Below are positions 8,264-46,515 of a stretch of 64,000 nt of DNA, piece after piece. The notes below the pieces were generated by a model that saw only the letters and a program-made list of their open reading frames with translations, ran no database searches and was not told where the DNA came from. The DNA is taken from positions 9,917 through 73,916 of the IMG/VR virus record IMGVR_UViG_2728369500_000003, one strand, 5' to 3'. Source of the DNA: a virus (taxonomy: Duplodnaviria; Caudoviricetes). The position numbers and the translations under genes were made by a program. Each line of letters begins with the position of its first letter. Within the stretch, counting starts at the first letter, position 1.

Positions 8264-8393
8264 TAATAACGTTTCGAAGCTTTATTAAGCAACTGATTTT
8301 AACCCACTTAATTTCATTTAACACTAACTTCATTTGAAAACCAAATGTTCAATTTAGCATTGAACCCGCCATTTTGCCAAACTGCTATTAGCC
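8264..8393 (-). repeat. attC-like ~130-bp cassette-boundary repeat
   Basis: On the gene strand: GGCTAAT-agcag-TTTGGCAAAATGGCGG ... cgaaac-GTTATTA; overlaps the protease stop and precedes the MTase leader. Confidence 0.5.
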
Positions 8394-9059
8394 GATGTTA
8401 TTCTTTAAAATAATTTCTTTGACGTGTTTTATGTTATAAGTTATTACTATTCCAGAATTTTCAAGGTATTTAATTTCCCCTAATGGTGTGTCAGTAAAAT
8501 TAGTTTGGGGTAAGTAGCCAGAAACAACACTAGTTAATACCATTTTATTTGTTGAGTTTTCATAGTAACCAACAGGTCCTCCAGAAAATCCTGGATTGTT
8601 ATGACCATCTAATAACATAATCGAACTACCATTTGGTTCATGAATATATCCAGAAACAATACATTTTTTGACAAGTGGAATAGGAAAGTTTGTTTTATTT
8701 GTAAAACTTTGATTTAAATTGTAAGGAAAACCTAGAAAGAAAATGTCACCACCAATAACTATATCCTCATCTAACAAAAAAGGAATGTCTTGAACGACTT
8801 TTTGTTGTAATTTAAATACAGCAATATCAACCCCTGATATTTCTGAAATATTTATATTTAAGGAAAATTCAATAAAACCATTATCAGTACGTATTTTGAA
8901 GTTTTTAATTTCTCCATTTTTTGCATTTGGAAATAAATGTTTTGCTGTAATTAGAAATTGGTTATTATTCCATGTAATTATGAAACATGTCCCTACTGAA
9001 GTTTCAAAAATAATATTAAATGTGTTCGTAAAAAATCCTAAAGGTATTGATTTTTCCAT
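8388..9059 (-). CDS. Trypsin-like (S1) serine protease, no signal peptide
   Basis: Catalytic triad motifs TAKH, DIAV, GFSGGP. Confidence 0.85.
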   Translation of the reverse strand: MEKSIPLGFFTNTFNIIFETSVGTCFIITWNNNQFLITAKHLFPNAKNGEIKNFKIRTDNGFIEFSLNINISEISGVDIAVFKLQQKVVQDIPFLLDEDIVIGGDIFFLGFPYNLNQSFTNKTNFPIPLVKKCIVSGYIHEPNGSSIMLLDGHNNPGFSGGPVGYYENSTNKMVLTSVVSGYLPQTNFTDTPLGEIKYLENSGIVITYNIKHVKEIILKNNIG

Positions 9060-9078
9060 AGTTTTTTTTTATAATGTT

Positions 9079-9150
9079 GTCTAACTCTTTTATACTCGCT
9101 ATAAACTAGCGACTATACATCTTAGTTGTGATGAATAGTCGCTACCAAGT
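9079..9150 (-). repeat. attC-like hairpin with GTTAGAC core upstream of the protease
   Basis: GTTAGAC (fits GTTRRRY) at 9085-9079 on minus; 10-bp inverted repeat TAGCGACTAT 9107-9116 / ATAGTCGCTA 9135-9144. Confidence 0.4.
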
Positions 9151-9225
9151 AGCTAATTTTTATCAAAAATACTTTTTTTTTATTTTCCTACAAGTCATCA
9201 AACGGATTTTTATTTGTTGAATACT

Positions 9226-9246
9226 TTTAGAGCCTGTTTAAATTTT
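9226..9246 (+). repeat. 21-bp direct repeat of 5697-5717 (IS-like end)
   Basis: TTTAGAGCCTGTTTAAATTTT at both ends of the 3.6-kb insert. Confidence 0.75.
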
Positions 9247-9310
9247 AGTGGAAAATTTTGTTAAAGCATTTCCGTGAACTTCCTACAAAATCCATTCAGG
9301 AGAAACCTGT

Positions 9311-9354
9311 CAAATATTTGGCAAGTTTTTTTTCTGCTTTCTTTCCTAGTTTTG
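9311..9354 (+). promoter_or_regulatory. Putative late promoter: CAAATATTTGGCAA plus TAGTTTTG -7 box
   Basis: Bacteroidetes TAnnTTTG at 9347-9354, 36 nt after motif start; identical layout at 51820/51856. Confidence 0.65.
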
Positions 9355-9372
9355 AGCTTTAAACAAAGTATT

Positions 9373-9723
9373 ATGAATAAAGAAATTTTCCCAACAGAGC
9401 CCAGCGAAGATGGCTTTTTCTACCAAAGTGAAGAGGAGAAAAACAGCGGCATATTAACCCGGAAATACGACAACGGAAGTGAAGTAAAACACCTTGAACT
9501 CAAGGATGGCCGAAAAGCTTCGGTGAGAAAGCTCAAAGGCCGGGATTTTGTCGAAACCAAGAAAAGAATGCAAAATGATCCTGCCGGTGATTTTGAAACC
9601 ATCAATATGAGTGTAGCCACCACCATAGAGGGAAAACAGCAGCCCCCGGAATTTTATCTCGATGATCTCTTCCAGGATGATTATGCAAAACTCATGATCG
9701 CGTTTTCCTCATTAAATTTTTAA
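9373..9723 (+). CDS. Tail assembly chaperone (P2 gpE-like)
   Basis: Between tube and tape measure; start MNKEIF shared with copy B. Confidence 0.7.
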   Translation: MNKEIFPTEPSEDGFFYQSEEEKNSGILTRKYDNGSEVKHLELKDGRKASVRKLKGRDFVETKKRMQNDPAGDFETINMSVATTIEGKQQPPEFYLDDLFQDDYAKLMIAFSSLNF

Positions 9724-9866
9724 TAGGGCTCAGGGAAATAGCCTTTACAGCGCACTTCTATGGCATATCACCATTAGAGGTAGAACAGTGGTACAGCCGT
9801 GAGATATACCTTTATTATAGAGAAGCGGTAGCCATTCATAATACCTTAAACTCTATCGAAGAATGA
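9717..9866 (+). CDS. -1 frameshift extension of the chaperone (gpE+E'-like)
   Basis: T run 9717-9721 before the stop; -1 frame open 49 codons (IAFTAHFYGISPLEVEQWYSREIY), TGA overlaps tape-measure ATG; conserved in B. Confidence 0.7.
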   Translation, partial: FLIGLREIAFTAHFYGISPLEVEQWYSREIYLYYREAVAIHNTLNSIEE

Positions 9867-12043
9867 ATCATGCAGCTACCGCCGTAACCCTTTTACTCAG
9901 AGCCGATATTTCAGGCGCAGAGTCCGCCATCAGACAACTTGACAGATCTTTCTCCGGCACATTAAGCAGAATCAATGCACAGGGACAATCCTTGATCAAT
10001 AGGGGGAAGAAAATGCAGGAGGCAGGCCTTTCCAACATGGCTGGAGGTGCTGCCATGCTCGCTCCATTAGGTTTAGCCGTAAAACAGGCCATAGAATTAG
10101 AATCAAAAATTGCCGATGTGGCCAAGGTAACCAATGATGATTTTGGAAGTAAAGGGTTTACTGAATTAACCAATAATGCCATCGCTGTTTCTAATCTATA
10201 CGGAGGGGCTGCTACCAGTGTAGCAGAACTCATGGCCGAATTGGCAGCAGGAGGCGTGGCCAAAAAAGAAATTGATGGAGTGGCAAGGTCTGCCAGTAAG
10301 ATTTCTTTCGCCTTTGACATGGCAGCAGGGGAGGCAGCCAAAGGCTATATGGTCATTAAAAATGCCATGGGCATTACCCTAAAAGAAACCGATGCCGTAA
10401 TGGATGCCATGAACGCCGCCACCAACAAATTTGGCGGTAAAGCTTCCAATCTGGTGACTTTTATGGCCAAGGGCGGAGCCTCTGTAGCCAGTACATTAAA
10501 AGTTTCAGGAACTCATATGCAGGCCTTCGGGAATGCCCTGCAGGTTGTAGGACAAAGCGGCGAAGAGTCCGCAACCATCATGAAAAGATTCCAAAAAGCC
10601 ATCATGGGAAATAAGGAGCTCAGCGCGATGTTTGTTAAAGCAGGCGGCGGAGCAAAAGGACTCATCGCTATTTTGGAAAAAGCAAAAGCCAGCGGTAATG
10701 CCTTTAGCTGGCTCAATAAAAGAGATGTCGGTGAATACAGTAACGCGGTAGCTCAATTAGCTGCCAATATGGATACAGCAACCGGAGTCAGAAACCAGCT
10801 TAACTTTCTCTCTAAAAATTCCAATGTGACAGGTAGTGTTCAAAATGAAGCCCAGAACCGCTTAAAAACAACAGGTGCACAATTGGAAATCCTAAAGCAG
10901 CAAACCATCAATGCCGGTATTAAAATAGGAGGCGCTTTATTACCCTCCCTAATGAAGCTGGCTCAGGCTGCAAAACCACTCATAGACAACCTTTCTAAAT
11001 GGATAACAGAAAATCCTAAATTAGTGGAGGGTATTGTAAAAATCATTGCAGCCATTGCCGCTCTAAAGATAGGAGTCGGCGCCTTACAATTTGGACTTGG
11101 AAGTACGATCACCACGATAGGAAAATTTATCACTGGCGGAAGTAAGGCACTAAGTGCCATTTCTAAGTTTTCCTCAACAATAGGACCGCACATCGGTAAA
11201 ACTTTCACAGTAGTGGGCAGAGTTTTTACCAGTATAGGCCCCGCCGCCATAAAAGCCGCTATGGGTCTGGGAAAAGCATTCAGGTTTATTGGGATCGCTT
11301 TTTCCACCGTGTCAAAATTACTCATCGCAAATCCCTGGATACTCTCTCTGACCGCCATTGCAGCAGCAGCCTATCTTATTTATAAAAACTGGGATAAGAT
11401 TTCCACCTGGTTTTCTAAATTATGGACCAAGGTAGCCGCTGTTTTCCGTTCCTATATTAAACTCATATCCGCTCTGCTGATCAAATTCACCCCTGCAGGA
11501 CTGATCTATAAACATTGGGATAAGATAAAAGGATGGTTCTCCTCACTCTGGGGCACTCTAAAAGAACTCTTTAATAAAGGACTGGAAGGCATTAAATTTT
11601 TATTTTTGAATTTCACTCCGCAGGGGCTGATCTACAAACACTGGTCTCCCATTACTGCTTTTTTCCAGAAATTATGGGACAAGGTCAAAGAGATATTCGC
11701 TAAAGCGATCAGTTGGATAAAAAATTCTGCGATAGGCCCATTAATCAGTAAGATGTTAAGTGGCCTGCAAGGAGCCGTGAGCAGTACCCGTTCCGCTCTT
11801 GATTACGCCTCAAAAAATTCTCTGGACGCAACAATTAATCATGTGGGAGGCACTAAAGCGCTCCCTCAACCCAAATCGTATGCCCGAAATCTAAACAGCA
11901 GCATGAGCTTCGCACCGGTGATTAATATAAGCGGCAGTATGGATCAGCCGACCCAACAAAAACTGACCGCCCAGATGCGAAGGGATTTTGAAAAGCAAAT
12001 GGCAGACTACAGTCACGGACAAAAAAGAAAAGGATTCGAATGA
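9863..12043 (+). CDS. Tail tape measure protein
   Basis: 726 aa Ala/Gly-rich, TP901-type core, C-terminal periodic W/F repeats. Confidence 0.92.
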   Translation: MNHAATAVTLLLRADISGAESAIRQLDRSFSGTLSRINAQGQSLINRGKKMQEAGLSNMAGGAAMLAPLGLAVKQAIELESKIADVAKVTNDDFGSKGFTELTNNAIAVSNLYGGAATSVAELMAELAAGGVAKKEIDGVARSASKISFAFDMAAGEAAKGYMVIKNAMGITLKETDAVMDAMNAATNKFGGKASNLVTFMAKGGASVASTLKVSGTHMQAFGNALQVVGQSGEESATIMKRFQKAIMGNKELSAMFVKAGGGAKGLIAILEKAKASGNAFSWLNKRDVGEYSNAVAQLAANMDTATGVRNQLNFLSKNSNVTGSVQNEAQNRLKTTGAQLEILKQQTINAGIKIGGALLPSLMKLAQAAKPLIDNLSKWITENPKLVEGIVKIIAAIAALKIGVGALQFGLGSTITTIGKFITGGSKALSAISKFSSTIGPHIGKTFTVVGRVFTSIGPAAIKAAMGLGKAFRFIGIAFSTVSKLLIANPWILSLTAIAAAAYLIYKNWDKISTWFSKLWTKVAAVFRSYIKLISALLIKFTPAGLIYKHWDKIKGWFSSLWGTLKELFNKGLEGIKFLFLNFTPQGLIYKHWSPITAFFQKLWDKVKEIFAKAISWIKNSAIGPLISKMLSGLQGAVSSTRSALDYASKNSLDATINHVGGTKALPQPKSYARNLNSSMSFAPVINISGSMDQPTQQKLTAQMRRDFEKQMADYSHGQKRKGFE

Positions 12044-12891
12044 TATTTCAATTAGGCAATAAAGAATTTTCAGGCCTCTACGCCCCGGAAGCATGGTCTT
12101 ATTCCGGAAATGAGGCTGTGCTTTCCCAGTATGATTTGATAGGCTCCAAGCCAAGGCTACAATTGGGGAGTGAAACCCTGGAAGAATTATCCCTACAGCT
12201 CACTTTAAGAGCGGATTTCTGCAATATCAATCAGGAATTACAGGATTTTGAAACATGGAAAAGCACAGGAGAAATATTACCCCTGATATTAGGCAATGGG
12301 GAGTATATCAACGATTTTGTACTCAAGTCCGCAGTGAAAACCATCTCGCAGACTTTCAGCGATGGATCCCCTATTGAGATTCAGGTTTCTCTGTCTCTTT
12401 TGGAAGTAGCTAATGATCCTGATAAGAAAAAAATCAATGCAAGGAAAAATGCACGGGCTGTTGGTGATAAACAGCAGATCAATACACTTCCTCCACAGCC
12501 CAAAACCTCAGAAGCACAGGCCCATAAAGCACTCATGGATGCCCAGTTAAAAGCATGGCAGGCCGCTGAAACAGCCAATCAAACCCTCCAAGTGGACAAT
12601 CCCGCTTCTTTATTTGACAAAGTTAAAAACACTCTCGATCAGGCGCAGAATAACATGACCAAAGCAATCGATGCTATTTCTGAGGCGCAGCAGCAGATCC
12701 ATAATGCAGCCGGTATTATTTCAGCCCTTAAAGAGTCTATGGCTCAGCTCACAGAGATTAAAACGGTAATGAAAGAACCTTTCAGAACACAAGACGTAAA
12801 GGCTGCTGTTTTGAATGCACAAAACGGAATCAGGGCGGTTAATACCGCTTCTACCGTATTCACTAATGATATTATTCTAAGAAAAATATAA
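12040..12891 (+). CDS. Tail protein (P2 GpU-like) with coiled-coil C-terminal extension
   Basis: MIFQLG start, KPRLQ..ETLEEL motif, position after tape measure. Confidence 0.65.
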   Translation: MIFQLGNKEFSGLYAPEAWSYSGNEAVLSQYDLIGSKPRLQLGSETLEELSLQLTLRADFCNINQELQDFETWKSTGEILPLILGNGEYINDFVLKSAVKTISQTFSDGSPIEIQVSLSLLEVANDPDKKKINARKNARAVGDKQQINTLPPQPKTSEAQAHKALMDAQLKAWQAAETANQTLQVDNPASLFDKVKNTLDQAQNNMTKAIDAISEAQQQIHNAAGIISALKESMAQLTEIKTVMKEPFRTQDVKAAVLNAQNGIRAVNTASTVFTNDIILRKI

Positions 12892-13112
12892 TAGCCGATA
12901 CGATTCAATATATCACGCAAGATGGAGAGAGATGGGATTCCATTTCCTGGAAAATGTATGGAACCGTGAGAGAAATTCCACGATTAATTTCTGCTAATCC
13001 CCAGGTGCCCATTTCTGAAAGACTAAAAGCAGGGACTGTGCTGGAGGTTCCAGTATTGGAAAGTTACAACCTAAAAACCGAAAAAGACCAATTACCACCA
13101 TGGAAACGCTAG
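12891..13112 (+). pseudogene. Tail protein X (P2 gpX-like) with start codon ATG changed to ATA
   Basis: Frame intact and homologous to 55400-55621 (YITQDGERWDSI) but first codon is ATA. Confidence 0.65.
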
Positions 13113-14155
13113 ATCAGATATACATCAAAGTCCTTTATAATGGTAAAAACATTACCGCAGATGTAAGCAAAAGCCTCATGTCTTTGGGGTATACAGATCA
13201 TATGTCCGAGGCAGATACTCTGGACATTACCCTGGAGGATTCTGAGTGTAAATGGCAGAGTGAGTGGTATCCCGAGAAAGGTGCAAAGATCACTGCTCAA
13301 ATCGGTATTGCAGGAGGTGAAGTCTTAGATTGCGGAATCTTTGAAATTGATGAGATTGAATTGTACGGCAGCCCCGATGCAGTCAATATACGCTGTATCG
13401 CAGCCGGATTTAAACAGGGACAGAAAAGAACCCTAAAAAGCCATGTTCACGAAAAGAAAACCCTTTCTCAGATCGTGCATACCATCGCAGCAGATCTAGG
13501 GTTAAAAGTCATTGGCAATGTGAGCCAGGTAAAAGTAGAGAGGCTCGTTCAGCAGAAAAAAGGCAATCTGACCACGCTCAAAAAACTCGCTTCCAGATAC
13601 GGCTATACCTTCAATGTCAGGGATCAGAATTTAATTTTTATTAAAAACGAAGAATTGGAGGGTAAACAGGCCGTAGCCTATTTCGATAAAACGGATCTAA
13701 TCAGCTTCTCTTTAACGGATAGAACTTTTGGCACCTATAGCTCCGCATCTATCAGGTTTCACAATCCGGAAGCAGGATCCATTATTGAGTATAAGACCTC
13801 AGAGGGAGGACTCCCCAATTCAGATGATGTCCTACATTTAGAACAGAGCGTAGATAGTATCGAGCAGGCACAGCAGATCACAAAATCAGCCCTCCGGGAA
13901 GCTAATAAAATGCAGCAATCAGGAAATATTGCCCTTCCCGGATCTGTGGTTCTGATAAGCGGCAATATCATTTCCCTGCATCGCCTGGGAAGACTTTCCG
14001 GGGATTATCTGATCAAAAGTGCTTCTCATACCTTGAGCAGTACCAGCGGCTGGCTGGTAGATGCAGAGATCTATAAAGTAGGATATAAGGAGGAGCTAGA
14101 AAAACAGACCGAAAGAAATACCCCGAAAAAAAATAAAAAAGACAGCAGCCAGTAA
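13100..14155 (+). CDS. Late control D / baseplate hub protein
   Basis: YTDHMSEADTLDITL, DCGIFEIDEIE motifs; P2 gene order. Confidence 0.85.
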   Translation: METLDQIYIKVLYNGKNITADVSKSLMSLGYTDHMSEADTLDITLEDSECKWQSEWYPEKGAKITAQIGIAGGEVLDCGIFEIDEIELYGSPDAVNIRCIAAGFKQGQKRTLKSHVHEKKTLSQIVHTIAADLGLKVIGNVSQVKVERLVQQKKGNLTTLKKLASRYGYTFNVRDQNLIFIKNEELEGKQAVAYFDKTDLISFSLTDRTFGTYSSASIRFHNPEAGSIIEYKTSEGGLPNSDDVLHLEQSVDSIEQAQQITKSALREANKMQQSGNIALPGSVVLISGNIISLHRLGRLSGDYLIKSASHTLSSTSGWLVDAEIYKVGYKEELEKQTERNTPKKNKKDSSQ

Positions 14156-14205
14156 GTTTTAATGATAAAGCCAACTGGAGAATCCTTAAAAAATTGGCCA
14201 CCACA

Positions 14206-14691
14206 ATGCTAAAATTCGGATTTATAACAGAAATAGACCACGCTAAAGGGTGTGTCAGAGTGAACTTTGCCAGCGATCAGATCGTCAGCAATCCCCTGCC
14301 GGTATCTGTACCGGCTTCAAAAAAGGACAAATACACATTCCCATTTTCAATCAATGAGCAGGTATGGTGCCTGATGGATGAAAACTGTGAATTCGGAGTC
14401 GTGGGCGGCGCCATCTATTCCCAGAAAGATTTCCCGCCACAAGGAGCCCGTGAAGATAAGCTCATCACAGAAATGAACGATGGTACATTTAGACTGGAAA
14501 TTGATAAAGCAAGCGGGAAATTCAAGATCAGCAATCCCGAAGTTAGTTTTAAGGAATTGTTTGAGGATTTAAAAATACTCATTGAAAACCTCAAAGTCAA
14601 AACATCCTCAGGACCCAGCGCAGGACTCCTGCCCGATACCATAGAGCGATTAAACCAGTTCGAACAGAAATACGAAAAAATACTATCCTGA
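14206..14691 (+). CDS. Baseplate spike protein (gpV-like)
   Basis: MLKFGFITEID.AKGCVRV, PFSINEQVWCLMD OB-fold motifs. Confidence 0.8.
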   Translation: MLKFGFITEIDHAKGCVRVNFASDQIVSNPLPVSVPASKKDKYTFPFSINEQVWCLMDENCEFGVVGGAIYSQKDFPPQGAREDKLITEMNDGTFRLEIDKASGKFKISNPEVSFKELFEDLKILIENLKVKTSSGPSAGLLPDTIERLNQFEQKYEKILS

Positions 14692-14912
14692 TGCCATTAG
14701 ATAAAAATACATTAAAAACCGAAATTAAAGCCATTCTATCCGATATGGAAAACAAAGAAACGGACAGCAAAGAAGAATTTGCCCAAAGACTTTCAGAGGC
14801 TATTGATGCATTTGTTAAGAGCGCTACGGTTACGGTCGCTGCGGGAATTCCGGTAACAACCTCCGGCGGATCGGGCTCTACTTCAGAGCAAGGAACTGGA
14901 ACCATCTCCTAA
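14691..14912 (+). CDS. Small conserved baseplate-region protein
   Basis: 73 aa, conserved in B (57203-57424). Confidence 0.6.
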   Translation: MPLDKNTLKTEIKAILSDMENKETDSKEEFAQRLSEAIDAFVKSATVTVAAGIPVTTSGGSGSTSEQGTGTIS

Positions 14913-14915
14913 AGG

Positions 14916-14959
14916 CAAATATTCAGCAAAAATTTTCCCGGCACAAGACATTAAGTTTG
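14916..14959 (+). promoter_or_regulatory. Putative late promoter: CAAATATTCAGCAA plus TAAGTTTG -7 box
   Basis: 36-nt spacing; same at 57428/57464. Confidence 0.6.
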
Positions 14960-14963
14960 CCCT

Positions 14964-15881
14964 ATGCAAGTGAGCGATATCCCAACAAAAAACTGGCAGT
15001 TAGACCTTAACAATGCAGGTAAAATTGTAGCCGGATATGATGATATTCAGCAGTGTATTGCTATTATTCTGCGCACCCGAAAAGGAGAAGACCCCCTAAG
15101 ACCAGACTTTGGAAGTGATATCTGGAAATGGCTCGATAAACCCATATCTGCCTCAATTCCCAACATGAAAAGAGAAATTATTCAGGCCCTGCAATCATAT
15201 GAACCCCGAATAACCATCCAAAAAATTGTCCATGAAATGGATATAACAGAGGGCAAAAGCAATATTATTTTTGGGATTACCTACAAAACCGGAGAGAATT
15301 ACACAGGTACCTTTCAGTATCACCTGAAACAGGACACCAGGCCTTTGGCTCTTTCCGCATCCTACCTGCCTGATGCATTCCTCTATTTTATTGAGATGTC
15401 TTTACAGGGTGGGGAGGTTACTCCAGCGAGTCCACAAAATGGATTCCTGTCTATTAATGAAATGATGAAATGGGTACATCAATTTTGGGGAAATCTGGGC
15501 AATTGGTATCTACTCATCCAGGAAAACAAGGTGATTGTGTATATCAATACCCAATTAGGAGCATCCGGTAAATTGACCGTCACAAGTGTTACAAGTGAAT
15601 TACACGCACCATTTCCAGAGAGATACGATCTTATCAATTACAATATCATATTTAAGAAAGACGGACGCAGAATAGCTCCCTGGAATTCAGAAGGCTTTCA
15701 GACCGAAAATGAAGCGTTGAATTTCGTAAGTCAGCAATACAAAGACTATGGGAAGTGGATCTTAAAAGACAATTATTTAGTGCTCATAGCAAGTGAGCCT
15801 TTAGATGGCTGTACGTTAGAAATTAACCTATTAACAAAAGGGGCTTTTAGCTCTGATTTTAATGAAGACTTTGAAATATAA
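14964..15881 (+). CDS. Baseplate wedge gp25/GpW-family protein with long C-terminal extension
   Basis: ILRTRKGEDPLRPDFGS...YEPRI gp25 motifs in the first ~115 aa. Confidence 0.8.
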   Translation: MQVSDIPTKNWQLDLNNAGKIVAGYDDIQQCIAIILRTRKGEDPLRPDFGSDIWKWLDKPISASIPNMKREIIQALQSYEPRITIQKIVHEMDITEGKSNIIFGITYKTGENYTGTFQYHLKQDTRPLALSASYLPDAFLYFIEMSLQGGEVTPASPQNGFLSINEMMKWVHQFWGNLGNWYLLIQENKVIVYINTQLGASGKLTVTSVTSELHAPFPERYDLINYNIIFKKDGRRIAPWNSEGFQTENEALNFVSQQYKDYGKWILKDNYLVLIASEPLDGCTLEINLLTKGAFSSDFNEDFEI

Positions 15882-16984
15882 TGGAAGCACCTGAATTTAT
15901 AGATATAGACCCTGAAACCATTATCCGCGAGATAAAATCGGACTACGAGCAGATGACCGGCAGTACCCTTTATCCCGGACAGGTAGAACAATTGCTGATT
16001 AATGCTTTGGCCTATCGGGAAGTCTTATTAAGAACACAGATTCAAAATGCCGCAACACAGAATCTGGTAGCCTTCAGCTCTGCCCCCTTTTTAGATTTCC
16101 TGGGAGATCTGGTCGGCGTAAAAAGACTTCCACCTTCTAAGGCTTTCGTTCAGGTAAAAATGAAATGTACGCCAGGACACGGAGTTCTCACCATACCAAA
16201 GGGCATTAGAATACAGGCTAATAATACCGGGGAGGTCTTTGCTCTCATGGAGGATGTGACCCTTCAGGCTGATGAAGATGAAAAAACAGCATCATTTGTC
16301 AGTGTGAATAACGGCGCACAGGCTAATGGATTGAATCCCGGGGAAATATCAATCATATTAGACCCTCAGCCTTATCTCTTCTCGGTAACCAACATCAATA
16401 CATCCACAGGCGGAAGCAATGAAGAATCGGACGAAGCTTTGCGAGAGCGTATTACCCTGGCTCCACAATCTTTCAGCAATGCCGGAAGCCGCGGAGCGTA
16501 TGCCTTTTTTGCACGCAGCGCCAATGCAGCAATTATGGATGTAGGAATCACCTCCCCTCTTCCCGGTCAGGTTAATATTTATCCATTAATGAAAGACGGA
16601 GAATTACCCAGCCAGGCCGTTTTGGACCAGGTAAAGATCGCATGCAGCGATGAAAAAGTACGACCCCTCACAGACACAGTTATCGTACTGCCCCCTACCG
16701 CTAAAAGTTACCAGATTGATGTTGATCTCACATTAATCACAGGGGCTTTAAGTTCGGAAGTTATCGCTATGGTACATGATAAACTCATCAATTATGCCAG
16801 CAGCAGGAAGATGAAAACAGGACTTGACGTGGTTATCGAAAAAATTATAGGAGAAGCCATGAAAGTAGATTCTGTGTATGAGGTAAAGGTAAATTCACCT
16901 TTATCGACAATCCTTGTCGGTGAAGATCAGGTAGCCCTATGCTCGGGGGTCAATGTTAAAGTAACAGGATATAGCGATGAATAA
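15881..16984 (+). CDS. Baseplate J-like protein
   Basis: GGSNEESDEALRERI, FSNAGSRGAY, VRPLTDTV motifs. Confidence 0.9.
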   Translation: MEAPEFIDIDPETIIREIKSDYEQMTGSTLYPGQVEQLLINALAYREVLLRTQIQNAATQNLVAFSSAPFLDFLGDLVGVKRLPPSKAFVQVKMKCTPGHGVLTIPKGIRIQANNTGEVFALMEDVTLQADEDEKTASFVSVNNGAQANGLNPGEISIILDPQPYLFSVTNINTSTGGSNEESDEALRERITLAPQSFSNAGSRGAYAFFARSANAAIMDVGITSPLPGQVNIYPLMKDGELPSQAVLDQVKIACSDEKVRPLTDTVIVLPPTAKSYQIDVDLTLITGALSSEVIAMVHDKLINYASSRKMKTGLDVVIEKIIGEAMKVDSVYEVKVNSPLSTILVGEDQVALCSGVNVKVTGYSDE

Positions 16985-17609
16985 TATACTGCCCGAGAGC
17001 TTGCAGCAACCCCATATCATCGCTTTTGACCTTTTGGCAAAAAAGCGCTTTAATGCCATAGAGCTAGATACCCTGCTGGTCTACATGATTGATTCCGTAC
17101 CGGAATCAGTCCTAAGAACATTAGCGATTCAGTTTGATCTCATGGGCTACAATGGATGGAAACTCGCAGACACCACCGAAAAGAAAAGAGACCTTATCAA
17201 AAGAGGAATTGAGCTTCACAGGTATAAAGGGACGCTCTGGGCCATCAAAGAAGCCCTGAGAACAGTAGGATTTCCTGATGCAACCATTACAGAGCATGTA
17301 AACCACTGGGCAGGATTTACCATTGAACTGGGTATTGGGCAGAATGCTGTAGATCCACAGCGTATTGAAGATGCCCTGGCCATGGTCAAAGCCTATAAGA
17401 ATGAACGATCACATCTCATGGGATTTGAATTTAAACTCGATTTCCAGGAAATGCTTTCATTGGTCGATGACAGCTATGAAGCTCCCGGAATAGAAAGTGA
17501 AGATGCTCTATTCTTAGGGGGTGACTTTATATATGACGGCACCTACACCTACAATGGTGAAAAAAATTACAACAACGACAACGATGTTTTAGAAATCATA
17601 ATAAACTGA
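16977..17609 (+). CDS. Tail protein I (P2 gpI-like)
   Basis: LHRYKGTLWAIKEAL motif; follows J. Confidence 0.85.
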   Translation: MNNILPESLQQPHIIAFDLLAKKRFNAIELDTLLVYMIDSVPESVLRTLAIQFDLMGYNGWKLADTTEKKRDLIKRGIELHRYKGTLWAIKEALRTVGFPDATITEHVNHWAGFTIELGIGQNAVDPQRIEDALAMVKAYKNERSHLMGFEFKLDFQEMLSLVDDSYEAPGIESEDALFLGGDFIYDGTYTYNGEKNYNNDNDVLEIIIN

Positions 17610-17610
17610 G

Positions 17611-18051
17611 ATGAAAGAAAATATAATAACAAAAGGATCTCTGGAAATCATTGTAAAAGATTCGGCAACACGACAAACCCTGAAGCGGATGAGCGGTGAT
17701 AATCTTATTGTTTCCGGAGGAATCATCAACGTAGCCAAACTACTGGGCGGAGATCTTTCCGGGAAAAGTATTTCCAAAGTAGGTTTTGGTGAAGGCCTCG
17801 CCGATCCCTCACCACAAGACAATGCCCTGGTCAATGGTTTCTATAAAAATATAGATAGCGTTACCTACCCTTCCATGAGTAAGGTACAATTTACTTTTTC
17901 TTTAGCTGCCGGGGAGGCGAACGGACTCAAAATTACAGAGCTGGGACTTTTTAATGCAGATCTGGTCATGTTTTCAAGAAAAACCAGACCGGAAATACTC
18001 AAGACATCAGCAATTATTTTAACAGGAATCTGGACCATAACAATTAACTAA
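17611..18051 (+). CDS. Baseplate/tail-fibre attachment protein
   Basis: EANGLKITELGLF motif resembling tail-fibre N-terminal domains; conserved in B. Confidence 0.55.
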   Translation: MKENIITKGSLEIIVKDSATRQTLKRMSGDNLIVSGGIINVAKLLGGDLSGKSISKVGFGEGLADPSPQDNALVNGFYKNIDSVTYPSMSKVQFTFSLAAGEANGLKITELGLFNADLVMFSRKTRPEILKTSAIILTGIWTITIN

Positions 18052-18052
18052 A

Positions 18053-19030
18053 ATGGGAGTTTTACAAGAATCAGCAGAGTGGGAAAAAAGCATCTATCAG
18101 ATAGAACAGTCGGATGTAGTACGGGGAGGTGATCCCCAGTCCGGAGGAATTGCCAACCGACAGGCTCAGCAGCTGGCCAATAGAACGAAGTATCTTTATG
18201 ATCATTTCAGCAAAAGAAAATCTCTAACCATCAAGCAGGTTTCACAGAGCATTCAATTGACTTTGCCTGATATCGTGGATAAAGACGTCGTTTTGGATAT
18301 TGCAAGCAGCGGCAAAGTGGTAACAGTAAATACTTCAGGAATTAATGAGGGTCAGGTTATGTCTTTCACCGCACTGGGGACAAACAGAAACGCCGTAAAA
18401 ATAGAAACCGGAATCCCCATAGAAGCAACTCCCGATGATGAGTTTAAAACAGATTTGTGGTTACATGGCGGAGAAAGCTTTTCAGCAGCATTCTACGGAG
18501 GTAAACTCTATCTCATCGGTGGAAATATTCATCTGGAAAACATTGGTGAAGTACGCTATGGATATACCCCGCAATCTTTCTCTCTCCCGGCAAACGGCAC
18601 TCTTGTTAACCGAGCGGATTTCCCAAGACTTTGGCAAATGGTCAGCAAATATTCCAAGATCGTTACAGACTCCCAGTGGCTCAGTGCCAGTGGTTTAAAC
18701 AGCGGATATTTTTCCTCAGGCAATGGTACTTCTACTTTCAGGGTGCCGGATTTACGAGGTCTTTTCATTCGTGGATTAGACGCTGGAAGGGGCATAGACC
18801 TGGACAGAAATTCAGCAAACATTCAGGACGGATCTTTCCAGGCAGATGCTTTAAAAAAGCACAAACACCTCATTACCGATGTTCATCCCTATGATGGATT
18901 TGCACTGCTGGGAGGAGGATTTAATGGAGGAGCAAATAACTTCAAATGGAGAAATACTGAAACCCAGGAAGCAGGAACCTATGAAACAAGACCGCAAAAC
19001 ATAGCCCTAACACCTTATATAAGATTTTAA
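18053..19030 (+). CDS. Tail fibre protein with tail-collar domain
   Basis: IYQIE...NRQAQQLANRT N-terminus; ANG...FPRLW...FRVPDLRGLFIRG collar motif. Confidence 0.85.
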   Translation: MGVLQESAEWEKSIYQIEQSDVVRGGDPQSGGIANRQAQQLANRTKYLYDHFSKRKSLTIKQVSQSIQLTLPDIVDKDVVLDIASSGKVVTVNTSGINEGQVMSFTALGTNRNAVKIETGIPIEATPDDEFKTDLWLHGGESFSAAFYGGKLYLIGGNIHLENIGEVRYGYTPQSFSLPANGTLVNRADFPRLWQMVSKYSKIVTDSQWLSASGLNSGYFSSGNGTSTFRVPDLRGLFIRGLDAGRGIDLDRNSANIQDGSFQADALKKHKHLITDVHPYDGFALLGGGFNGGANNFKWRNTETQEAGTYETRPQNIALTPYIRF

Positions 19031-19031
19031 G

Positions 19032-20411
19032 ATGGATACAACGAATATTAAAAATAAGATCAACCTAAACATCAAAGACAATCAGGCCAGAGAAATTACC
19101 GCTGAAAAAGTCAGGGAGGTGCTGTATTATATCGTGGATGAGTTTAATGATAACTTTGTCGATGAAAAAGGCATTGATGGAAAACTCGATAAAACGACCG
19201 AGACCGTTTCAGGTCCTGATACCGTTTTTAAGTATGCCTATATTCTTGACCAGGATAATAATGTCAGAAGAATGTTTGCCGGTGATCTGGGGAAAAATGT
19301 TGCCAATTCGGCATTGACATCAATTGCCGGAGCCGGATTGACTCTAGGCGCCAACTGGACCATTAATACAGCAGGATTCTATTATTACCTCAAAAATTTG
19401 CCCGATAAATCAACAGATTCCACATTTGTAAGAATGAGAGTCCAGGATTCAACAGGCCAGGAAGCATGGAGTAACGGGAAAAATATCGTCTTACGTTTTC
19501 CCTCACTGGCAACCGATGCCGAAAAAACGACCTTTAGAAATGGACTGAAATTATCAACTGAAAATTTCTCTACAGGGACCCCAAGAATTGATGTCCTACT
19601 CCTTCCTTTTATTGACAATACAAAGAACTTCATTCAATATACAACACTCGTAGGAGTCAATCTATTTGTGGATAATATTACCCCAAACGCCTACATCAAA
19701 ATTAAAAGAATCAAGGATATTAACGGTACAATTCTTCCAGCACCTGAAACCTATGATGTCGATAATTTCACTGTACTGCAGAATTTCCCCAATAACCTGA
19801 ATTTTGGAATCAACTGGAAAACAAAGCCAGAAGGATATTACCAGGTTTTTGTAACCCATAACAATATGACAAACGCAAGCTCCCCGGAATTAATCGTAAA
19901 AGAAGGATTAACTTACAGCCAGTTTACAGGCATTGCGAACTGGCAGAAAGCTTCAGGAGGGGATTCTTCCGTAAATGACACAGCCATTTCATCTGGATCT
20001 CAAAACACCCTCTATTACTCCGATAACTTAATAAATACCGCCGAAGTAAATGCAGGTTTTATGGCCTCATTTTCTTTAAATAATCAATTAACCAACTATG
20101 GAGCCAACTTCGTTAACTTTTGGAGATGCGGGTTAATTGGCAACGGGGATAGCGTATTCTATGGAGTTCAGTACTACGATGGCGGCGGAATAGGCATGTT
20201 ACCTGGCACTACATTGGCCATAAGAAACGATACTTTTCATATTGCCTATTATAATGGAGTCGTATATGTCATCGCCGAAGGAAATGGCAAAACGTATCAA
20301 CAGTTTAACAGTACTTACAATTTATACCCGAAAAGGTTTGTTTTCCAATTAGGTGGAGGAGGACAAGGCTCTATCAGTATGCAGGTACTAGGAAAAATTC
20401 TATTATCTTAA
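19032..20411 (+). CDS. Putative virion structural / receptor-binding protein
   Basis: After the tail fibre; beta-rich Gly/Asn/Thr composition; conserved in B. Confidence 0.5.
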   Translation: MDTTNIKNKINLNIKDNQAREITAEKVREVLYYIVDEFNDNFVDEKGIDGKLDKTTETVSGPDTVFKYAYILDQDNNVRRMFAGDLGKNVANSALTSIAGAGLTLGANWTINTAGFYYYLKNLPDKSTDSTFVRMRVQDSTGQEAWSNGKNIVLRFPSLATDAEKTTFRNGLKLSTENFSTGTPRIDVLLLPFIDNTKNFIQYTTLVGVNLFVDNITPNAYIKIKRIKDINGTILPAPETYDVDNFTVLQNFPNNLNFGINWKTKPEGYYQVFVTHNNMTNASSPELIVKEGLTYSQFTGIANWQKASGGDSSVNDTAISSGSQNTLYYSDNLINTAEVNAGFMASFSLNNQLTNYGANFVNFWRCGLIGNGDSVFYGVQYYDGGGIGMLPGTTLAIRNDTFHIAYYNGVVYVIAEGNGKTYQQFNSTYNLYPKRFVFQLGGGGQGSISMQVLGKILLS

Positions 20412-20657
20412 AAATTAAAAGCATGAACGAAAATTTAAACATACCCGAAAATATTCAAAAAATTACCTTTTTTGTAATCAGTTTGTTCTGCACATTAGGT
20501 AAATATCTTATAAAGTGGGATTATAAGCTTACTACATTATATGCTATTCTAACAAGTAACAATCTTGTTTTTGACCGTTTTTTCCACATATGCCCGAAAA
20601 GCTGAACAAAAACTTCAAAAGAAGCTAATATATTAATCTTTTAATACAATAATCACA

Positions 20658-21491
20658 ATGAAAAATTATACTCAGGCTCCTTTGCCTTTTCAGGGACAGA
20701 AAAGAAAATTTTTAAAACACTTTAAAGAAGCTTTAAAAGAATTCTCACCCAATGCTACCTATGTAGATTTATTTGGTGGATCGGGACTGCTCAGCCATAC
20801 TGTGAAAAATTTCTATCCGGATGCAACGGTTATTTATAATGATTTTGATAATTACACATTACGCATTGAGAATATTGATAACACCAATACTTTACTGGCT
20901 GATATTCGGGCAATCTGTTCTAAAAATACCAATAGAAAAGACAAAGAAAGACTAAGTGATAGTCTTTGTCGTGAAATTATTGAAAGAATAAGCCATGAGC
21001 AAGGTTTTATCGACTGGGTGACCATATCATCATCTTTACTGTTCTCCATGAATTATGTGACAAACTTTGACCAGCTGAAAAAAGAAACATTCTATAATAA
21101 GGTCAGATTAAGTGATTATAACGCAGAGGGCTATCTTGAAGGGGTAAACACAACTAAAAAAGATTATCGTGATTTATTTGCCGATTATAGAAATAATACA
21201 GATGTAGTCTTTTTGGTTGATCCTCCCTATCTATCAACAGATACCACAACATACAACCGTAATGATTATTGGAAATTGTCAGACTATCTCAATGTACTCA
21301 AGACTATTGAAGATACATCTTACTTCTATTTTACAAGCAATAAAAGCCAAATTACAGAGCTTTGCGAGTGGATGCAGCAGCATGGATACTGCAGAAGTCC
21401 TTTTGATGGAGCTAAAACCATAACCGTAGGAACACAGCTGACTTACAATGCTGCTTACAATGATATAATGATCTATAGAAATATTTTTTAA
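20658..21491 (+). CDS. Orphan DNA adenine methyltransferase (Dam/D12 class)
   Basis: PLPFQGQK, VDLFGGSG (motif I), LVDPPY (motif IV). Confidence 0.88.
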   Translation: MKNYTQAPLPFQGQKRKFLKHFKEALKEFSPNATYVDLFGGSGLLSHTVKNFYPDATVIYNDFDNYTLRIENIDNTNTLLADIRAICSKNTNRKDKERLSDSLCREIIERISHEQGFIDWVTISSSLLFSMNYVTNFDQLKKETFYNKVRLSDYNAEGYLEGVNTTKKDYRDLFADYRNNTDVVFLVDPPYLSTDTTTYNRNDYWKLSDYLNVLKTIEDTSYFYFTSNKSQITELCEWMQQHGYCRSPFDGAKTITVGTQLTYNAAYNDIMIYRNIF

Positions 21492-37798: not shown

Positions 37799-37808
37799 TT
37801 TTTGAGTA

Positions 37809-38642: not shown

Positions 38643-38679
38643 TGAAACCCATAAAACTGAAAATCGTAGCAATATCAAT

Positions 38680-38955: not shown

Positions 38956-38984
38956 GTAAAAAATAACATACACCCCTGGAATCC

Positions 38985-39180: not shown

Positions 39181-39192
39181 CACTAAAAAATT

Positions 39193-41557: not shown

Positions 41558-41558
41558 T

Positions 41559-43566: not shown

Positions 43567-44212
43567 TGGCCTCAACTTTTTGCAGAGACAATTAGAGGAC
43601 AGAAATCTTAAGAAAGCCAGCACAAGGGCCCTAAATAAAGCAATTGCAAAAGGTAACACCCATTATAGGCGAATGATTTCTGAATATTATAACATTAAGC
43701 CTATTGATATCAGAAATTCTATTGTGCTGAAAAAAGCAACCTATTCACAGAATGAGGCTTCTATCTCAGGAAATTTCAAACCCTTGAGCTTATCCAGGTT
43801 TGGTCCACAGTTTGTTAATGGCCGAAGTGTTATTTCTATTCGCTCGGTGAGAAATAAAGAAACAGGAAGAAGAACTTTACAGCAAAGAACCCGAAATGCA
43901 AGGAAAAACGAGCAAGCCGGTGGAGGGGTTTCTATTGAGATCAAAAAAGGAAGCAGAAAAGTTATTCCTTATGCTTTCTTAACAAAATCATCGGCAAATA
44001 CCGGAGTTGAAAAACAAATTTTTGCCAGAGGAAAATACGCCGGAGGAAAATTCGAGAAAGCAAAAGAAAGATTCCCCATTACCGCCATGAAAACCACTTC
44101 TGTTTTTGGGATTTTGACTAATGACCCTATTCAAAGAAAAATAGAAACAGAATCTAAAGAAACTCTGCAAAGAGAGTTTGAAAGACAAATTTATTTATTA
44201 ATAAGAAGATAA
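43535..44212 (+). CDS. Minor tail/neck protein (GpZ-like)
   Basis: Basic protein, RALNKA motif, follows the portal. Confidence 0.55.
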   Translation: MIQVTIAHTSNGLNFLQRQLEDRNLKKASTRALNKAIAKGNTHYRRMISEYYNIKPIDIRNSIVLKKATYSQNEASISGNFKPLSLSRFGPQFVNGRSVISIRSVRNKETGRRTLQQRTRNARKNEQAGGGVSIEIKKGSRKVIPYAFLTKSSANTGVEKQIFARGKYAGGKFEKAKERFPITAMKTTSVFGILTNDPIQRKIETESKETLQREFERQIYLLIRR

Positions 44213-44308
44213 CGTTTCGCTGTTTTGCAAAGTGGCGGATTGTATGCACAACTGTTGATACGAAGCAGTTCGCATTCATACACCTCACATTGGCGAGGCA
44301 TTATAGGC
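44208..44308 (-). repeat. attC-like ~100-bp repeat whose GTT core coincides with the phage junction
   Basis: Minus: GCCTATAAT ... CCGCCACTTTGCAAAA-cagcgaaac-GTTATC; homology with copy A ends at the shared AAC (335/44213). Confidence 0.55.
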
Positions 44309-44339
44309 AGGCTACCTGTCAGCGTACTATTGACCGACC

Positions 44340-45311
44340 TTAACCAATAAACAACTGATTTGAGAAAAGAGAGTGAGGTGCGGATACTAAATTAATATCA
44401 AACTTTAAAGATGGCTCAATCCGAGAACTTGCATTATGAATACGGAAAGAAATTTGCCAACCTTCACTTAACGTTACTAAAATAGTTGTCTTTGAATTAT
44501 CTTGGTAAACTACTTCAATCAAACGGTTTGGTAGTTTCAGACGCTGAATTTTTGCTTTTGGTTTTACGCTTTCAAAAGGTAAATTCAATGTTCCGTGTAA
44601 ATTATAGGCTTGAATTTCGACCTTGTTTTTACCTTTTATGACTTTGTAAAAATCTTGATTACCAATCAAATACTTAATTAAATTTTCGGCTACAATTCCA
44701 GGGTTTTCGTTATCCAAACGCAATAATTCTTTCTTAAAAGCATCCAAAACAGGAACATAAACGGATGTATGATAATCGCCTAAGGTATCCCATTTTTGGG
44801 TTGCTTTGCTTGCTGTTCTCAGCTTTGCCAAATTATCGAAAACAGGTTTGACTTCTTGGAAATATTCAGCAGAACAAGGAAAGCCTAACCACTTTTGACC
44901 AAAATCAATATCGTTTGACAAACGAGAATGTTTTACGGCTCTATGATTGTTTTTTGCCGAAACTCCTATTTCCCATTTTTGCAATGAGCGAATAGCCAAA
45001 ACATCGCGAACATCACCGGTTTGACCAGCTTTGTCGGCTACAATCTCGAGTTGTAGAATATCTTCATCACTAATTCCGTTTGATAAACGTGGCTCAATAT
45101 CAAGTAAAAAATTTACCGCAAAACTTGCCACTAATTTGTAATGACTTTGTTCCTTTTCGTCAAAGCTTGTAAAACATTTCAAAGCAGTTTTGTAAGGTTC
45201 ATTTTCAACAAATGAAACAGAAGTTAGCACTCTTAAACGTTCTAAAAACTCGATTAGCAAAGCATATTCAAATGCTTTTCCGTTTATGGTTTGGGTTGCA
45301 ATTTTTGACAT
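44340..45311 (-). CDS. haeIIIR: HaeIII-family type II restriction endonuclease
   Basis: NGKAFEY, GDVRDVL, GVSAKNNHRAVKHSRLS motifs; TAATG overlap with the C5 MTase. Confidence 0.8.
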   Translation of the reverse strand: MSKIATQTINGKAFEYALLIEFLERLRVLTSVSFVENEPYKTALKCFTSFDEKEQSHYKLVASFAVNFLLDIEPRLSNGISDEDILQLEIVADKAGQTGDVRDVLAIRSLQKWEIGVSAKNNHRAVKHSRLSNDIDFGQKWLGFPCSAEYFQEVKPVFDNLAKLRTASKATQKWDTLGDYHTSVYVPVLDAFKKELLRLDNENPGIVAENLIKYLIGNQDFYKVIKGKNKVEIQAYNLHGTLNLPFESVKPKAKIQRLKLPNRLIEVVYQDNSKTTILVTLSEGWQISFRIHNASSRIEPSLKFDINLVSAPHSLFSNQLFIG

Positions 45312-46402
45312 TATACTGTTACTCGGTTTACAATTTCATTCAGTTTTTCAATTACAACATTTCCATTGTATTCAGTAGAAATAGGTTTTTGAACAACTTT
45401 ATTAATAACGTTCAAATGATCTAAATCAGCATAAATCTTTTCTGCCAAAATCACACCCATTCTAACAGGAACAGCATTTCCAATCATTTTGTAACCAGCG
45501 GATACACTGCTATATTCAAATGAAAAAGTATCCGGAAAAGTTTGAATTCTTGCACATTCCCGAACACTTAATCTTCGATATAAATGTTCTTGACCTTTCA
45601 CAAATTCACGCAAATTTTGTTCAATAAGTTTCATTTTTGGAGCTTGTGGGTGGATTGGTGCATGACGACCACCAGCTTGGATTGTAAATGACACTTCATC
45701 CCAAGAGCGAACCCTATTTCTTGACATAAACATCGACGAAAAACCACCAATCATATATTCATGGTTTGATACTTTGCAGTCTTTTCCATTGGTATAGTTC
45801 CCTTCTTTTGCAGGTAAGGCAGTATCTTTTAAATCACTAATTGCTTTTTCAAGAGTAATTTTGTTTTCTAACGTTGTGGGTCTTGGAAAGGTGAATTTAA
45901 TTCCCAAATCTTTACGATAACCTATAAAAAAAACACGTTTCCTATCTTGTGGAACGCCATAATCTGAGACATTCAATAACTGAAATGACAAGTCGTAGCC
46001 TATATCAGTAAACATCTGTTTTATGTTTGCTAACGCTTCTTTATGAGCAGGCAACAACATTCCAGACACATTTTCAGCCAAGAAAAATTTAGGTTTCTTA
46101 TCTGCTAAAATTCGCATAAATTCATAAAAAAGCTGACCTCTTTTATCTGCAATTCCTCGCTTTGAACCAGCCTCCGACCAGCTTTGACAAGGAGGTCCGC
46201 CAATAATTCCATCACAATCAGGAACTTCATTTGATGGAATATCGACAATACTTCTTCTATCTAAAATTGTGTTTTTATGGTTCTTTTCATAGGTTGCCCA
46301 AATTTCTTTATCATATTCATTTGCCCAAACGACATCAAAACCAGCTTTCTCAAACCCTAAATCAAGACCACCTGCACCTGCAAAAAACGATACGACTTTC
46401 AT
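45311..46402 (-). CDS. haeIIIM: C5-cytosine DNA methyltransferase, M.HaeIII-like (likely GGCC)
   Basis: FAGAGG, GGPPCQSWS, ENV, QDRKRVF, YKMIGNAVP; ANEYDK..W.TYEKNH and LSVRECARIQ segments as recalled for M.HaeIII. Confidence 0.88.
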   Translation of the reverse strand: MKVVSFFAGAGGLDLGFEKAGFDVVWANEYDKEIWATYEKNHKNTILDRRSIVDIPSNEVPDCDGIIGGPPCQSWSEAGSKRGIADKRGQLFYEFMRILADKKPKFFLAENVSGMLLPAHKEALANIKQMFTDIGYDLSFQLLNVSDYGVPQDRKRVFFIGYRKDLGIKFTFPRPTTLENKITLEKAISDLKDTALPAKEGNYTNGKDCKVSNHEYMIGGFSSMFMSRNRVRSWDEVSFTIQAGGRHAPIHPQAPKMKLIEQNLREFVKGQEHLYRRLSVRECARIQTFPDTFSFEYSSVSAGYKMIGNAVPVRMGVILAEKIYADLDHLNVINKVVQKPISTEYNGNVVIEKLNEIVNRVTV

Positions 46403-46483
46403 ACCTTGGAAATTTAATTATTCAACAACAAACTTACTAATTTAAAAACATTTCGCCCAAATTATGAGCGGGAAAATTGACCA

Positions 46484-46515
46484 GTCTATAACAAGAGTTT
46501 TGCATAATGGCGGTG
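46484..46515 (+). repeat. Truncated attC-like half site
   Basis: GTCTATAAC-aagag-TTTTGCATAATGGCGG, 14/16 identical to the arms at 44223-44238 and in the 8264-8393 repeat; cut by the phage promoter motif at 46516. Confidence 0.5.

Follow-up and report, generated by a model that had tools for sequence, protein, structure and literature searches.

Restriction-modification genes in tandem Bacteroidota prophages are probably pieces of arrays from an integron-like cassette system

Sedentary chromosomal integrons, such as the superintegron of Vibrio cholerae with its V. cholerae repeats (VCR), and clusters of attC sites lacking integron integrases (CALINs) form arrays in which the genes, mostly single and poor in promoters, each precede an imperfect palindrome that has AAC and GTT cores. 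The site sequences are highly similar within and between arrays, a divergent tyrosine recombinase stands at the array head, crossover takes place at G/TT (the slash marks the cut), the cargo is rich in defence and unknown genes, and orphan sites occur in genomes that have no recombinase. In the survey with IntegronFinder 2.0, only one complete integron came from Bacteroidetes, that of Salinibacter ruber (PMC9024848). Phages have been reported to carry integron components (Qi et al. 2023, PMC9892861), and integrons to carry defence cassettes (bioRxiv 10.1101/2024.07.02.601686 and 10.1101/2024.07.02.601719), all of the IntI type, and, as far as they are cited in the IntegronFinder article (PMC4889954), two studies recorded integron cassettes at secondary sites (Recchia and Hall 1995; Segal et al. 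1999). Here, we analyzed 64,000 nt of a virus record (IMGVR_UViG_2728369500_000003, positions 9,917 to 73,916; hereafter, the window), in which two tandem prophages carry restriction-modification (R-M) genes beside a small family of repeats. These repeats are very probably decayed sites, analogous to attC, of an integron-like cassette system of Bacteroidota, and the R-M genes would be pieces of its arrays. The system resembles the chromosomal integrons and CALINs in every feature listed above, and our literature searches found no description of it.

An original prediction, read from the letters of the window, had described three related 16-mers as arms of attC-like repeats, and the degenerate pattern indeed matches with zero mismatches at 8366–8381 on the minus strand and at 44223–44238 and 46498–46513 on the plus strand. 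No further exact match exists in the 5.09-Mb host genome (G000), where all three copies lie within prophage inserts; among the 239 other genomes of the genus, 22 have the exact 16-mer (a reversed control pattern gave 3 matches). Its context in nearly every case is yTAAC, one base (A in the consensus), GCAG-TTTGGCAAAATGGCGG, a variable middle, CCGCCACTTCGCCAAGCTGC, AAAAC and GTTA. An intact site is thus an imperfect palindrome, usually of 133 nt (range 97–195), in which a TAAC core, a 1-nt spacer, a 20-nt left arm including the 16-mer, the variable middle, the right arm, a 5-nt spacer and a GTTA core follow one another.

Two alignments (A1 and A2) gave the consensus TAAC...GTTA, and their folding recovered a stem of 23 pairs. 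On 60 sites, whose alignment was fitted to the model and is hence biased toward the structure, 86% of the cells are paired, compared with 30–46% when the partners are slid; double-sided changes number 163, versus 64 in shuffles (none of 500 shuffles attained the observed value), and 18 of the 23 pairs show changes on both sides. The intact copies form long hairpins with compensatory changes, as a structured attC-like site should according to the original prediction. The two strands fold nearly equally well (−18.2 kcal/mol for the top and −19.0 for the bottom). The Bacteroidota sites differ from those of the chromosomal integrons in having long arms, of about 20 bp, and asymmetric spacers, with 1 nt on one side and 5 nt on the other. 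As to the extrahelical bases of the L box, which set strand choice in integrons, these sites show no bulged bases but instead two A·C mismatches, which are conserved.

A covariance model, R1, which was built from 19 sites, all from other genomes, matches in 83 of 150 other genomes of the genus, with up to 22 or more matches per genome. The matches form same-strand runs at a spacing of 0.4–2.7 kb, for example 11 sites in 9 kb (locus L051) and 10 sites in 7.5 kb (L053), L056 likewise having 10–11 sites in 7.5–9 kb. On the same strand, an open reading frame (ORF) ends 5–19 nt 5' of the extracted element, which starts 12 nt 5' of the 16-mer. Thus the gene-separating arrays foreseen for such a system do exist in congeners, and their cargo is very diverse: beta-lactamase fold, reverse transcriptase, GNAT, ParA-like, GmrSD, PIN, kinase, Mrr and several DUF proteins.

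A further signature lies within the cassettes. In 35 cassettes, the 8 nt that follow GTT were compared with the 8 nt that precede AAC at the next site; once the latter are reverse-complemented, the two agree at 5.94 of 8 positions, whereas other pairings give 3.19 and the two sides of one site 3.3; 18 of the 35 score 7 of 8. Read from the sequences, two results indicate that the sites are recombination sites: this complementarity, which is the trace expected of circular cassettes that are cut and joined at G/TT, and the recombinase linked to the arrays. The elements might instead be REP-like (repetitive extragenic palindromic) repeats, intrinsic terminators or structured RNAs at 3' ends. They do stand directly after stop codons and form long hairpins. 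However, neither a terminator nor an RNA element would leave such complementarity between the start and the end of a cassette 0.4–2.7 kb long, the recombinase is consistently linked to the arrays, no Rfam family matches the element, no T-run follows the stems, and no scattered copies exist in this genome, so that this explanation is extremely improbable. A related reading, chance or REP elements, had first been raised by the poor fold of the window copies and their rarity in the host genome, and was dropped after the genus-wide pattern and model searches.

The recombinase is a tyrosine recombinase, adjacent to and divergent from the arrays, at G013:C4, G123:C23, G124:C2 and G009:C27; in L051, it occupies 7893–8717 on the minus strand (274 aa), and the first cassette starts at 8868 on the plus strand. 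Between recombinase and array, two genomes have in common an attI-like motif that ends in GTTAGC. Recombinase linkage had been anticipated together with the arrays and the fold, and all three agree with an attC-like family of a Bacteroidota cassette system. The assignment of that system to integron integrases proper, in contrast, does not stand. Alignment to VchIntIA (2a3v) places 18 residues of the recombinase opposite about 50. Of the protein models, NF040815 (XerA type) is the best one whose cut-off is exceeded (234.6 bits versus 220). The IntI model TIGR02249 falls short of its cut-off of 265, at 204 bits, and aligns as two segments with model positions 181–238 unmatched between them, and NF011946 gives 130 bits against 435. 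The shortened stretch corresponds to the part of IntI that contains the I2 helix, which reads extrahelical bases. Because it is XerA-like and has no IntI-specific region, unlike the recombinases of chromosomal integrons, the enzyme is not an IntI, and the system is integron-like and not a canonical integron. An ordinary integron, in which plain attC sites are used by an IntI-type integrase, would account for the architecture in congeners (divergent recombinase, attI-like region, same-strand arrays, crossover at G/TT), and TIGR02249 is the second-best model for the recombinase; nevertheless, with the interrupted, sub-threshold match and the shortened stretch we regard it as most unlikely. IntegronFinder defines IntI by the IntI-specific region, and surveys accordingly set aside recombinases without it (PMC4889954), one complete Bacteroidetes integron having been reported (PMC9024848).

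Two forms of the recombinase were seen. The short form (274–279 aa) goes with the attI-like motif TACGCAATGCGTAAATTTGGAWGTTAGC, while in the long form (about 330 aa), which has a partial match to the IntI-specific region, the first site comes after a conserved GCTACCGRAGGTTTAGTTCAAC leader. The recombinase loci are L051:7893–8867, L058:6931–7900, and L055:7531–8394 and 18670–19548.

The family extends well beyond the genus. The left-arm 18-mer occurs in more than 120 stretches of a collection of species-representative genomes, among them stretches of Flavobacterium, Chryseobacterium, Epilithonimonas, Pedobacter, Sphingobacterium, Chitinophagaceae, Saprospiraceae, Cytophagales and Bacteroidales, and scanning 80 of these loci with the model gave scores of up to 157 bits and more arrays. 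The 18-mer is also present in 13 IMG/VR contigs, three of which have arrays. One site sequence is thus common to several orders of a phylum that has been surveyed as almost integron-free, which is another difference from the chromosomal integrons. Near-perfect copies (114–146 bits) were also seen in L069, L098 and L135, on contigs of metagenome-assembled genomes labelled Acidobacteria, Gammaproteobacteria and Ignavibacteriales, where they reflect either binning errors or transfer beyond Bacteroidota. In three species, L015, L022 and L033 (G080, G128 and G255) have a site with TAAT for TAAC and identical flanks, between two opposite-strand ORFs of 200 aa; this unit may be a mobile unit of another kind.

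The window contains two closely related prophages in tandem, A (1 to about 31986) and B (from about 32088), and a third relative, prophage C (C1:831676–861141; IMG/VR UViG 2728369500_000001), lies elsewhere in the same genome. Outside two hotspots, A and B are 94–96% identical, the homologous blocks being 1–335 with 43879–44213, 389–5629 with 46516–51756, and 9295–21491 with 51804–64000. Hotspot 1, between the minor-tail-Z-like gene and the protease/capsid gene, holds 53 bp in A, 2302 bp in B (44214–46515; a HaeIII-type nuclease and a C5 methylase) and about 2.8 kb in C, with an 863-aa type IIG-like R-M enzyme (HSDR_N, N6_Mtase, Methylase_S). Hotspot 2, after the tail tube gene, holds about 3.5 kb in A (a trypsin-like peptidase, an EcoRI-family methylase and a GmrSD_N/HNH nuclease), 47 bp in B, and the empty form in C. 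The cargo of both hotspots is antisense to the late genes and has a G+C content of 25–36% compared with 39–48%. Lower-G+C, antisense defence genes amid conserved late genes, with three sister prophages that differ in the cargo of the same two hotspots, are as expected of phage morons and mobile R-M units; unlike these, the present cargo bears sites of a cassette system, and in one case also tips of an insertion sequence (IS), which gives it a concrete origin. The features are collected in Table 1.

A 16-nt motif, GTCAAATATTTRGCAA, has six copies in the genome, confined to the three prophages. Each copy (in the window, at 389–404, 9307–9322, 46517–46532 and 51816–51831) marks the exact point where homology restarts past a cargo hotspot, just 5' of the next late gene, and the motif is probably a late promoter or a regulator site.

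Table 1. Cassette-related features, genes and insertion sequence remnants in the window
Feature	Positions	Strand	Evidence
IS5-family tips, two, back to back; left border of insert A	5701..5739		16-nt perfect inverted repeats, 7-nt spacer (inverted repeat I6)
Putative second-site remnant (CGCCAAGC ... GATAAC for GTTAnC), then conserved leader of a third cassette	5797..5840	-	direct reading of the sequence
GmrSD_N/HNH nuclease, 387 aa, partner of the methyltransferase	5864..7027	-	Pfam GmrSD_N E 4e-22 + HNH; PADLOC REase_II E 1e-85
EcoRI-family adenine methyltransferase, 388 aa	7028..8194	-	Pfam EcoRI_methylase E 1e-128; PADLOC MTase_II
attC-like site, full-length, decayed	8263..8393	-	R1 88.9 bits, E 3.5e-20, model positions 1-133; nhmmer, whole genome, E 6.7e-21
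Trypsin-like peptidase gene, 223 aa, first cassette of the putative array fragment	8388..9059	-	Pfam Trypsin_2 E 2.5e-10; weak LmuA/HamA-type PADLOC matches
GTTAGAC (9079-9085, GTCTAAC on the plus strand) and hairpin with 15-bp arms (9107-9144)	9079..9144	-	DNA fold z -4.2
Third IS tip (9230-9245), including about 20 nt from inside the IS; right border of insert A	9216..9265	+	same IS tip sequence
Minor tail protein Z-like phage gene	43535..44212	+	Pfam Minor_tail_Z; stop TAA + C gives the TAAC/GTTA core of the left junction of insert B
Decayed attC-like site, 3' of the nuclease gene	44206..44312	-	nhmmer profile positions 53-131 (44208-44267), E 8.9e-4 genome-wide; R1 15.1 bits, E 0.3
HaeIII-type restriction endonuclease, 323 aa	44340..45311	-	Pfam RE_HaeIII E 3e-98; PADLOC REase_II E 1e-103
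C5 cytosine methyltransferase, 363 aa	45311..46402	-	Pfam DNA_methylase E 2e-97; PADLOC MTase_II E 4e-114
Truncated left half-site	46481..46516	+	R1 18 bits, E 0.055; nhmmer positions 3-35, E 0.08; weak alone

The repeats had been proposed as borders of both inserts, and this holds for insert B, in hotspot 1, but not for insert A, in hotspot 2, in which the repeat is internal, between the protease and the methylase genes. In the site of insert A, TAA, at which the protease gene stops, falls within the gene-proximal core (R'') GGCTAAT, the 16-mer at 8366–8381 makes up the left arm, and the distal core (R') is GTTATTA at 8266–8272; the methyltransferase gene starts 78 nt beyond R'. The right arm has decayed, about 7 of the 23 model pairs being broken, and no closing stem forms (−13.8 kcal/mol versus a mean of −18.2 for array copies). 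The 11-mer ATAACGTTTCG occurs genome-wide only here, at 8266, and in the site of insert B, at 44209. Farther along, the stretch 5797–5840 was compared with the cassette starts of arrays elsewhere and with the attI-proximal start in L058, and is similar to 8229–8267; we infer that it is the remnant of a second site followed by the start of a third cassette, of which a stump of a few codons is left, cut at the IS tip at 5739/5740. Insert A would accordingly be an array fragment in which a protease cassette and its full-length, decayed site are followed by a methylase/nuclease cassette and then by the stump of the third. DNA relatives of its genes were not found in the 239 congeners, where only its attC-like site was matched.

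The outer borders of insert A, which had been taken for attC-like sites, are IS5-family tips instead. The tip 16-mer, GAGCCTGTTTAAATTT, is identical at 16 of 16 positions to the ends of about 15 copies of an 846-bp IS in the genome (e.g., C1:119617–120462 and about 14 more), which encodes a transposase (DDE_Tnp_1 and DUF4096) and has 16-nt terminal repeats and TNA target duplications. Two 185-bp derivatives resembling miniature inverted-repeat transposable elements also have these tips (C1:1004213–1004397 and C5:4718–4902). Because the left pair of tips is flanked by TTA on the left and CTT on the right, with no matching TNA duplication, the IS remnants are products of rearrangement and not of one clean insertion. 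A direct repeat of 31 nt (21 nt exact) links 5687–5717 with the region 9216–9265, and prophage C has a single copy of it at exactly this place and no insert; by recombination across the 21–31-nt repeat, the states of A and C would interconvert, loss of insert A yielding the state of C. Since IS5-family tips bound both sides, insert A most likely entered through an IS-linked event.

At the 5' side of the protease gene, GTTAGAC was located as predicted, 20 nt upstream of the start, together with a strong hairpin (9107–9144; 15-nt arms, 93% complementary) that lies between the IS tip and GTTAGAC. The hairpin has no R'' partner and was rejected as an attC-like site. As a candidate 5' boundary of the protease cassette, GTTAGAC (the 7 nt following GTT against the R'' extension) scores 4 of 7, and ATTAGCT at 9141–9149 scores the same.

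Homology between prophages A and B had been predicted to stop at GATAAC, where the repeat begins, and the alignment block does end at 335/44213. The site of insert B has its parts in the correct order within 100 nt: R'' (CTATAAT, 44300–44306), one base, a diverged left arm (17-mer at 44282–44298), a hairpin middle, the right arm (44219–44238, the 16-mer region in reverse complement), the spacer GAAAC (44214–44218) and GTTATC. The GTTA of R' is the reverse complement of TAAC at 44210–44213, which contains the stop codon of the phage gene. The insert-specific sequence ends exactly at the spacer and the GTTATC core is common to prophage A, so that the left junction of the HaeIII-type insert falls exactly on the GTT core, in agreement with the claim that one junction lies on the crossover triplet. 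At the other end, the half-site has the R'' extension CCAGTCTATAAC, the 1-nt spacer seen in left arms and the 16-mer; it is cut after the arm, where it abuts the phage motif GTCAAATATTTAGCAA. Its R'' extension is complementary to 44300–44311 at 9 of 12 positions (5 of 7 beyond the core), which fits modestly with the two ends belonging to one cassette. The two half-sites of insert B are the next-best model matches in the window and the only others in the genome. The half-site at 46481–46516 was also considered as an attI, but it is unlike the attI regions of both recombinase types.

The perfect 17-mer ACCTCACATTGGCGAGG is found only at 44282–44298 and at L011:119–135 (L011 being C1:849400–852450), at the right end of the hotspot 1 cargo of prophage C. 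The two copies have opposite orientations relative to the phage, and that of C lies beside GTCAAATATTTAGCAA within a half-site-like sequence, in the opposite orientation relative to the cargo. By its position, the 17-mer looks like the diverged left arm of an attC-like site, although the model does not detect it.

Insert B would thus be a HaeIII-type R-M cassette whose downstream site ends at a GTTA core held in common with the phage stop codon. We think it more likely than not that, in a previous host in which the enzyme was present, the recombinase crossed over at a secondary GTT and so formed the left junction. This would resemble the integron cassettes at secondary sites, as far as those are related in the article that cites them, in that the cassette lies outside an integron, its site ends at a GTT supplied by the target, and it is expected to be hard to re-excise; it would differ from them in that the other junction is not of the simple form, there is no pre-insertion allele, and the enzyme is non-IntI. 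Site-specific delivery into the phage, which had been proposed for the defence genes generally, would therefore apply to one junction only, which coincides with a stop codon as well, since the hotspot 1 alleles of A, B and C differ by replacement and not by clean insertion.

The sites might alternatively be genuine cassette remnants that travelled as passengers, the inserts having entered by IS-mediated, homologous or illegitimate recombination, with no recombinase crossover in the phage at any time, and the GTT junction being microhomology or a chance TAAC at a stop codon. The IS5-family tips and the direct repeat around insert A agree with this, as do the hotspot 1 alleles, which replace one another from a stop codon up to a conserved motif, as moron mosaics of phages typically do, and the half-site on the wrong strand at the other end of B. 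However, the site sequence of B stops exactly at the spacer/core boundary and the phage supplies a 4–6-nt GTTATC core that is in register with the family consensus, a coincidence of about 1/100 to 1/250 for a random junction, and allele C has a related half-site at the same position beside the phage motif. We consider the passenger explanation rather unlikely, though it is the most serious of the alternatives.

Several observations weigh against an origin of the R-M genes from arrays and of the B junction from the recombinase. The whole case is one of sequence comparison. In insert A, the complementarity of the ends of the protease cassette (4 of 7) is at chance level, and a search for an R'' belonging to the methylase/nuclease cassette gave none, so that this cassette is without a recognizable site. 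In insert B, the left arm of the site is so diverged that its recognition depends on position and spacer only, and the cassette ends are modestly complementary (5 of 7 after the core). The ends of B are also unlike those of a simple cassette insertion, with an opposite-strand truncated half-site where only a GTT junction is expected, and its left boundary can also be read simply as the point where a conserved gene ends. The three alleles of hotspot 1 (53 bp, 2302 bp and about 2.8 kb) are unrelated sequences, none of which is a true pre-insertion allele. No donor array for the HaeIII-type R-M pair was found, the homologous pairs in two congeners (74% identity; L002 and L003) having no flanking sites. 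Moreover, a search for relatives of the prophages in the genus, IMG/VR, INPHARED and metagenome contigs recovered only the sister prophage C (in IMG/VR).

Whichever way they arrived, the cassettes appear to be immobile now, because the arms are unpaired, one site is truncated and the host has no cognate recombinase. The three window copies fold no better than shuffled sequence (DNA fold z −1.3 to +1.7), and no significant fold or closing stem forms in the site of insert B; this is because the arms have decayed, not because the family is unstructured. As the original prediction stated, no integron integrase is present in the window, and no recombinase of the kind linked to the arrays is present there or anywhere else in the host genome, the best recombinase relative being 34% identical. 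Likewise, whole-genome model and profile searches of the host found no arrays, only the three prophage copies. Both long copies do have AAT for AAC at the gene-proximal core (GGCTAAT at 8386–8392 on the minus strand and TATAAT within 44300–44306, read on the minus strand), a position at which C is the usual base in 46 of 56 sites. That this change locks the cassettes in place, as suggested, is possible, but with the arm pairing already lost and no enzyme in the host, such a lock need not be invoked. The remaining role of the inserts is predicted to be that of prophage-borne R-M modules that protect the lysogen. In short, the original interpretation was largely right: its core stands, and some of its details do not.

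Placed beside the described systems, the sites follow single genes in long same-strand arrays that start beside a divergent XerA-like recombinase, and the cassettes would be cut and joined at G/TT. The reports of phage-borne integron parts and of defence cassettes in integrons are similar in that attC-type sites and cassettes are carried by phages and anti-phage systems travel as cassettes. They concern Proteobacteria and IntI-type systems, however, whereas here complete type II R-M pairs of a non-IntI system lie in the moron hotspots of temperate Bacteroidota phages. We see about an even chance that these observations reflect an undescribed class of Bacteroidota integrons, having a Xer-like recombinase without the IntI domain and nearly invariant sites of about 133 nt across orders, whose cassettes, including complete R-M systems, are shuttled by temperate phages to GTT secondary sites or site remnants in moron hotspots and so reach hosts, like the present one, from which the system is missing.

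Integron surveys treat Bacteroidota as nearly integron-free and define integrases by a domain that is absent from this recombinase. If the proposal is true, a phylum-wide system without the IntI domain would alter the view of how folded-site recombination evolved from Xer enzymes, and would change where reservoirs of gene cassettes are looked for. To this, the window would add that entire R-M systems move as cassettes and finish in prophages, with site decay and the absence of the recombinase illustrating how cassettes become fixed, and the three sister prophages in one genome provide natural alleles with and without the cargo and exact junctions for experiments.

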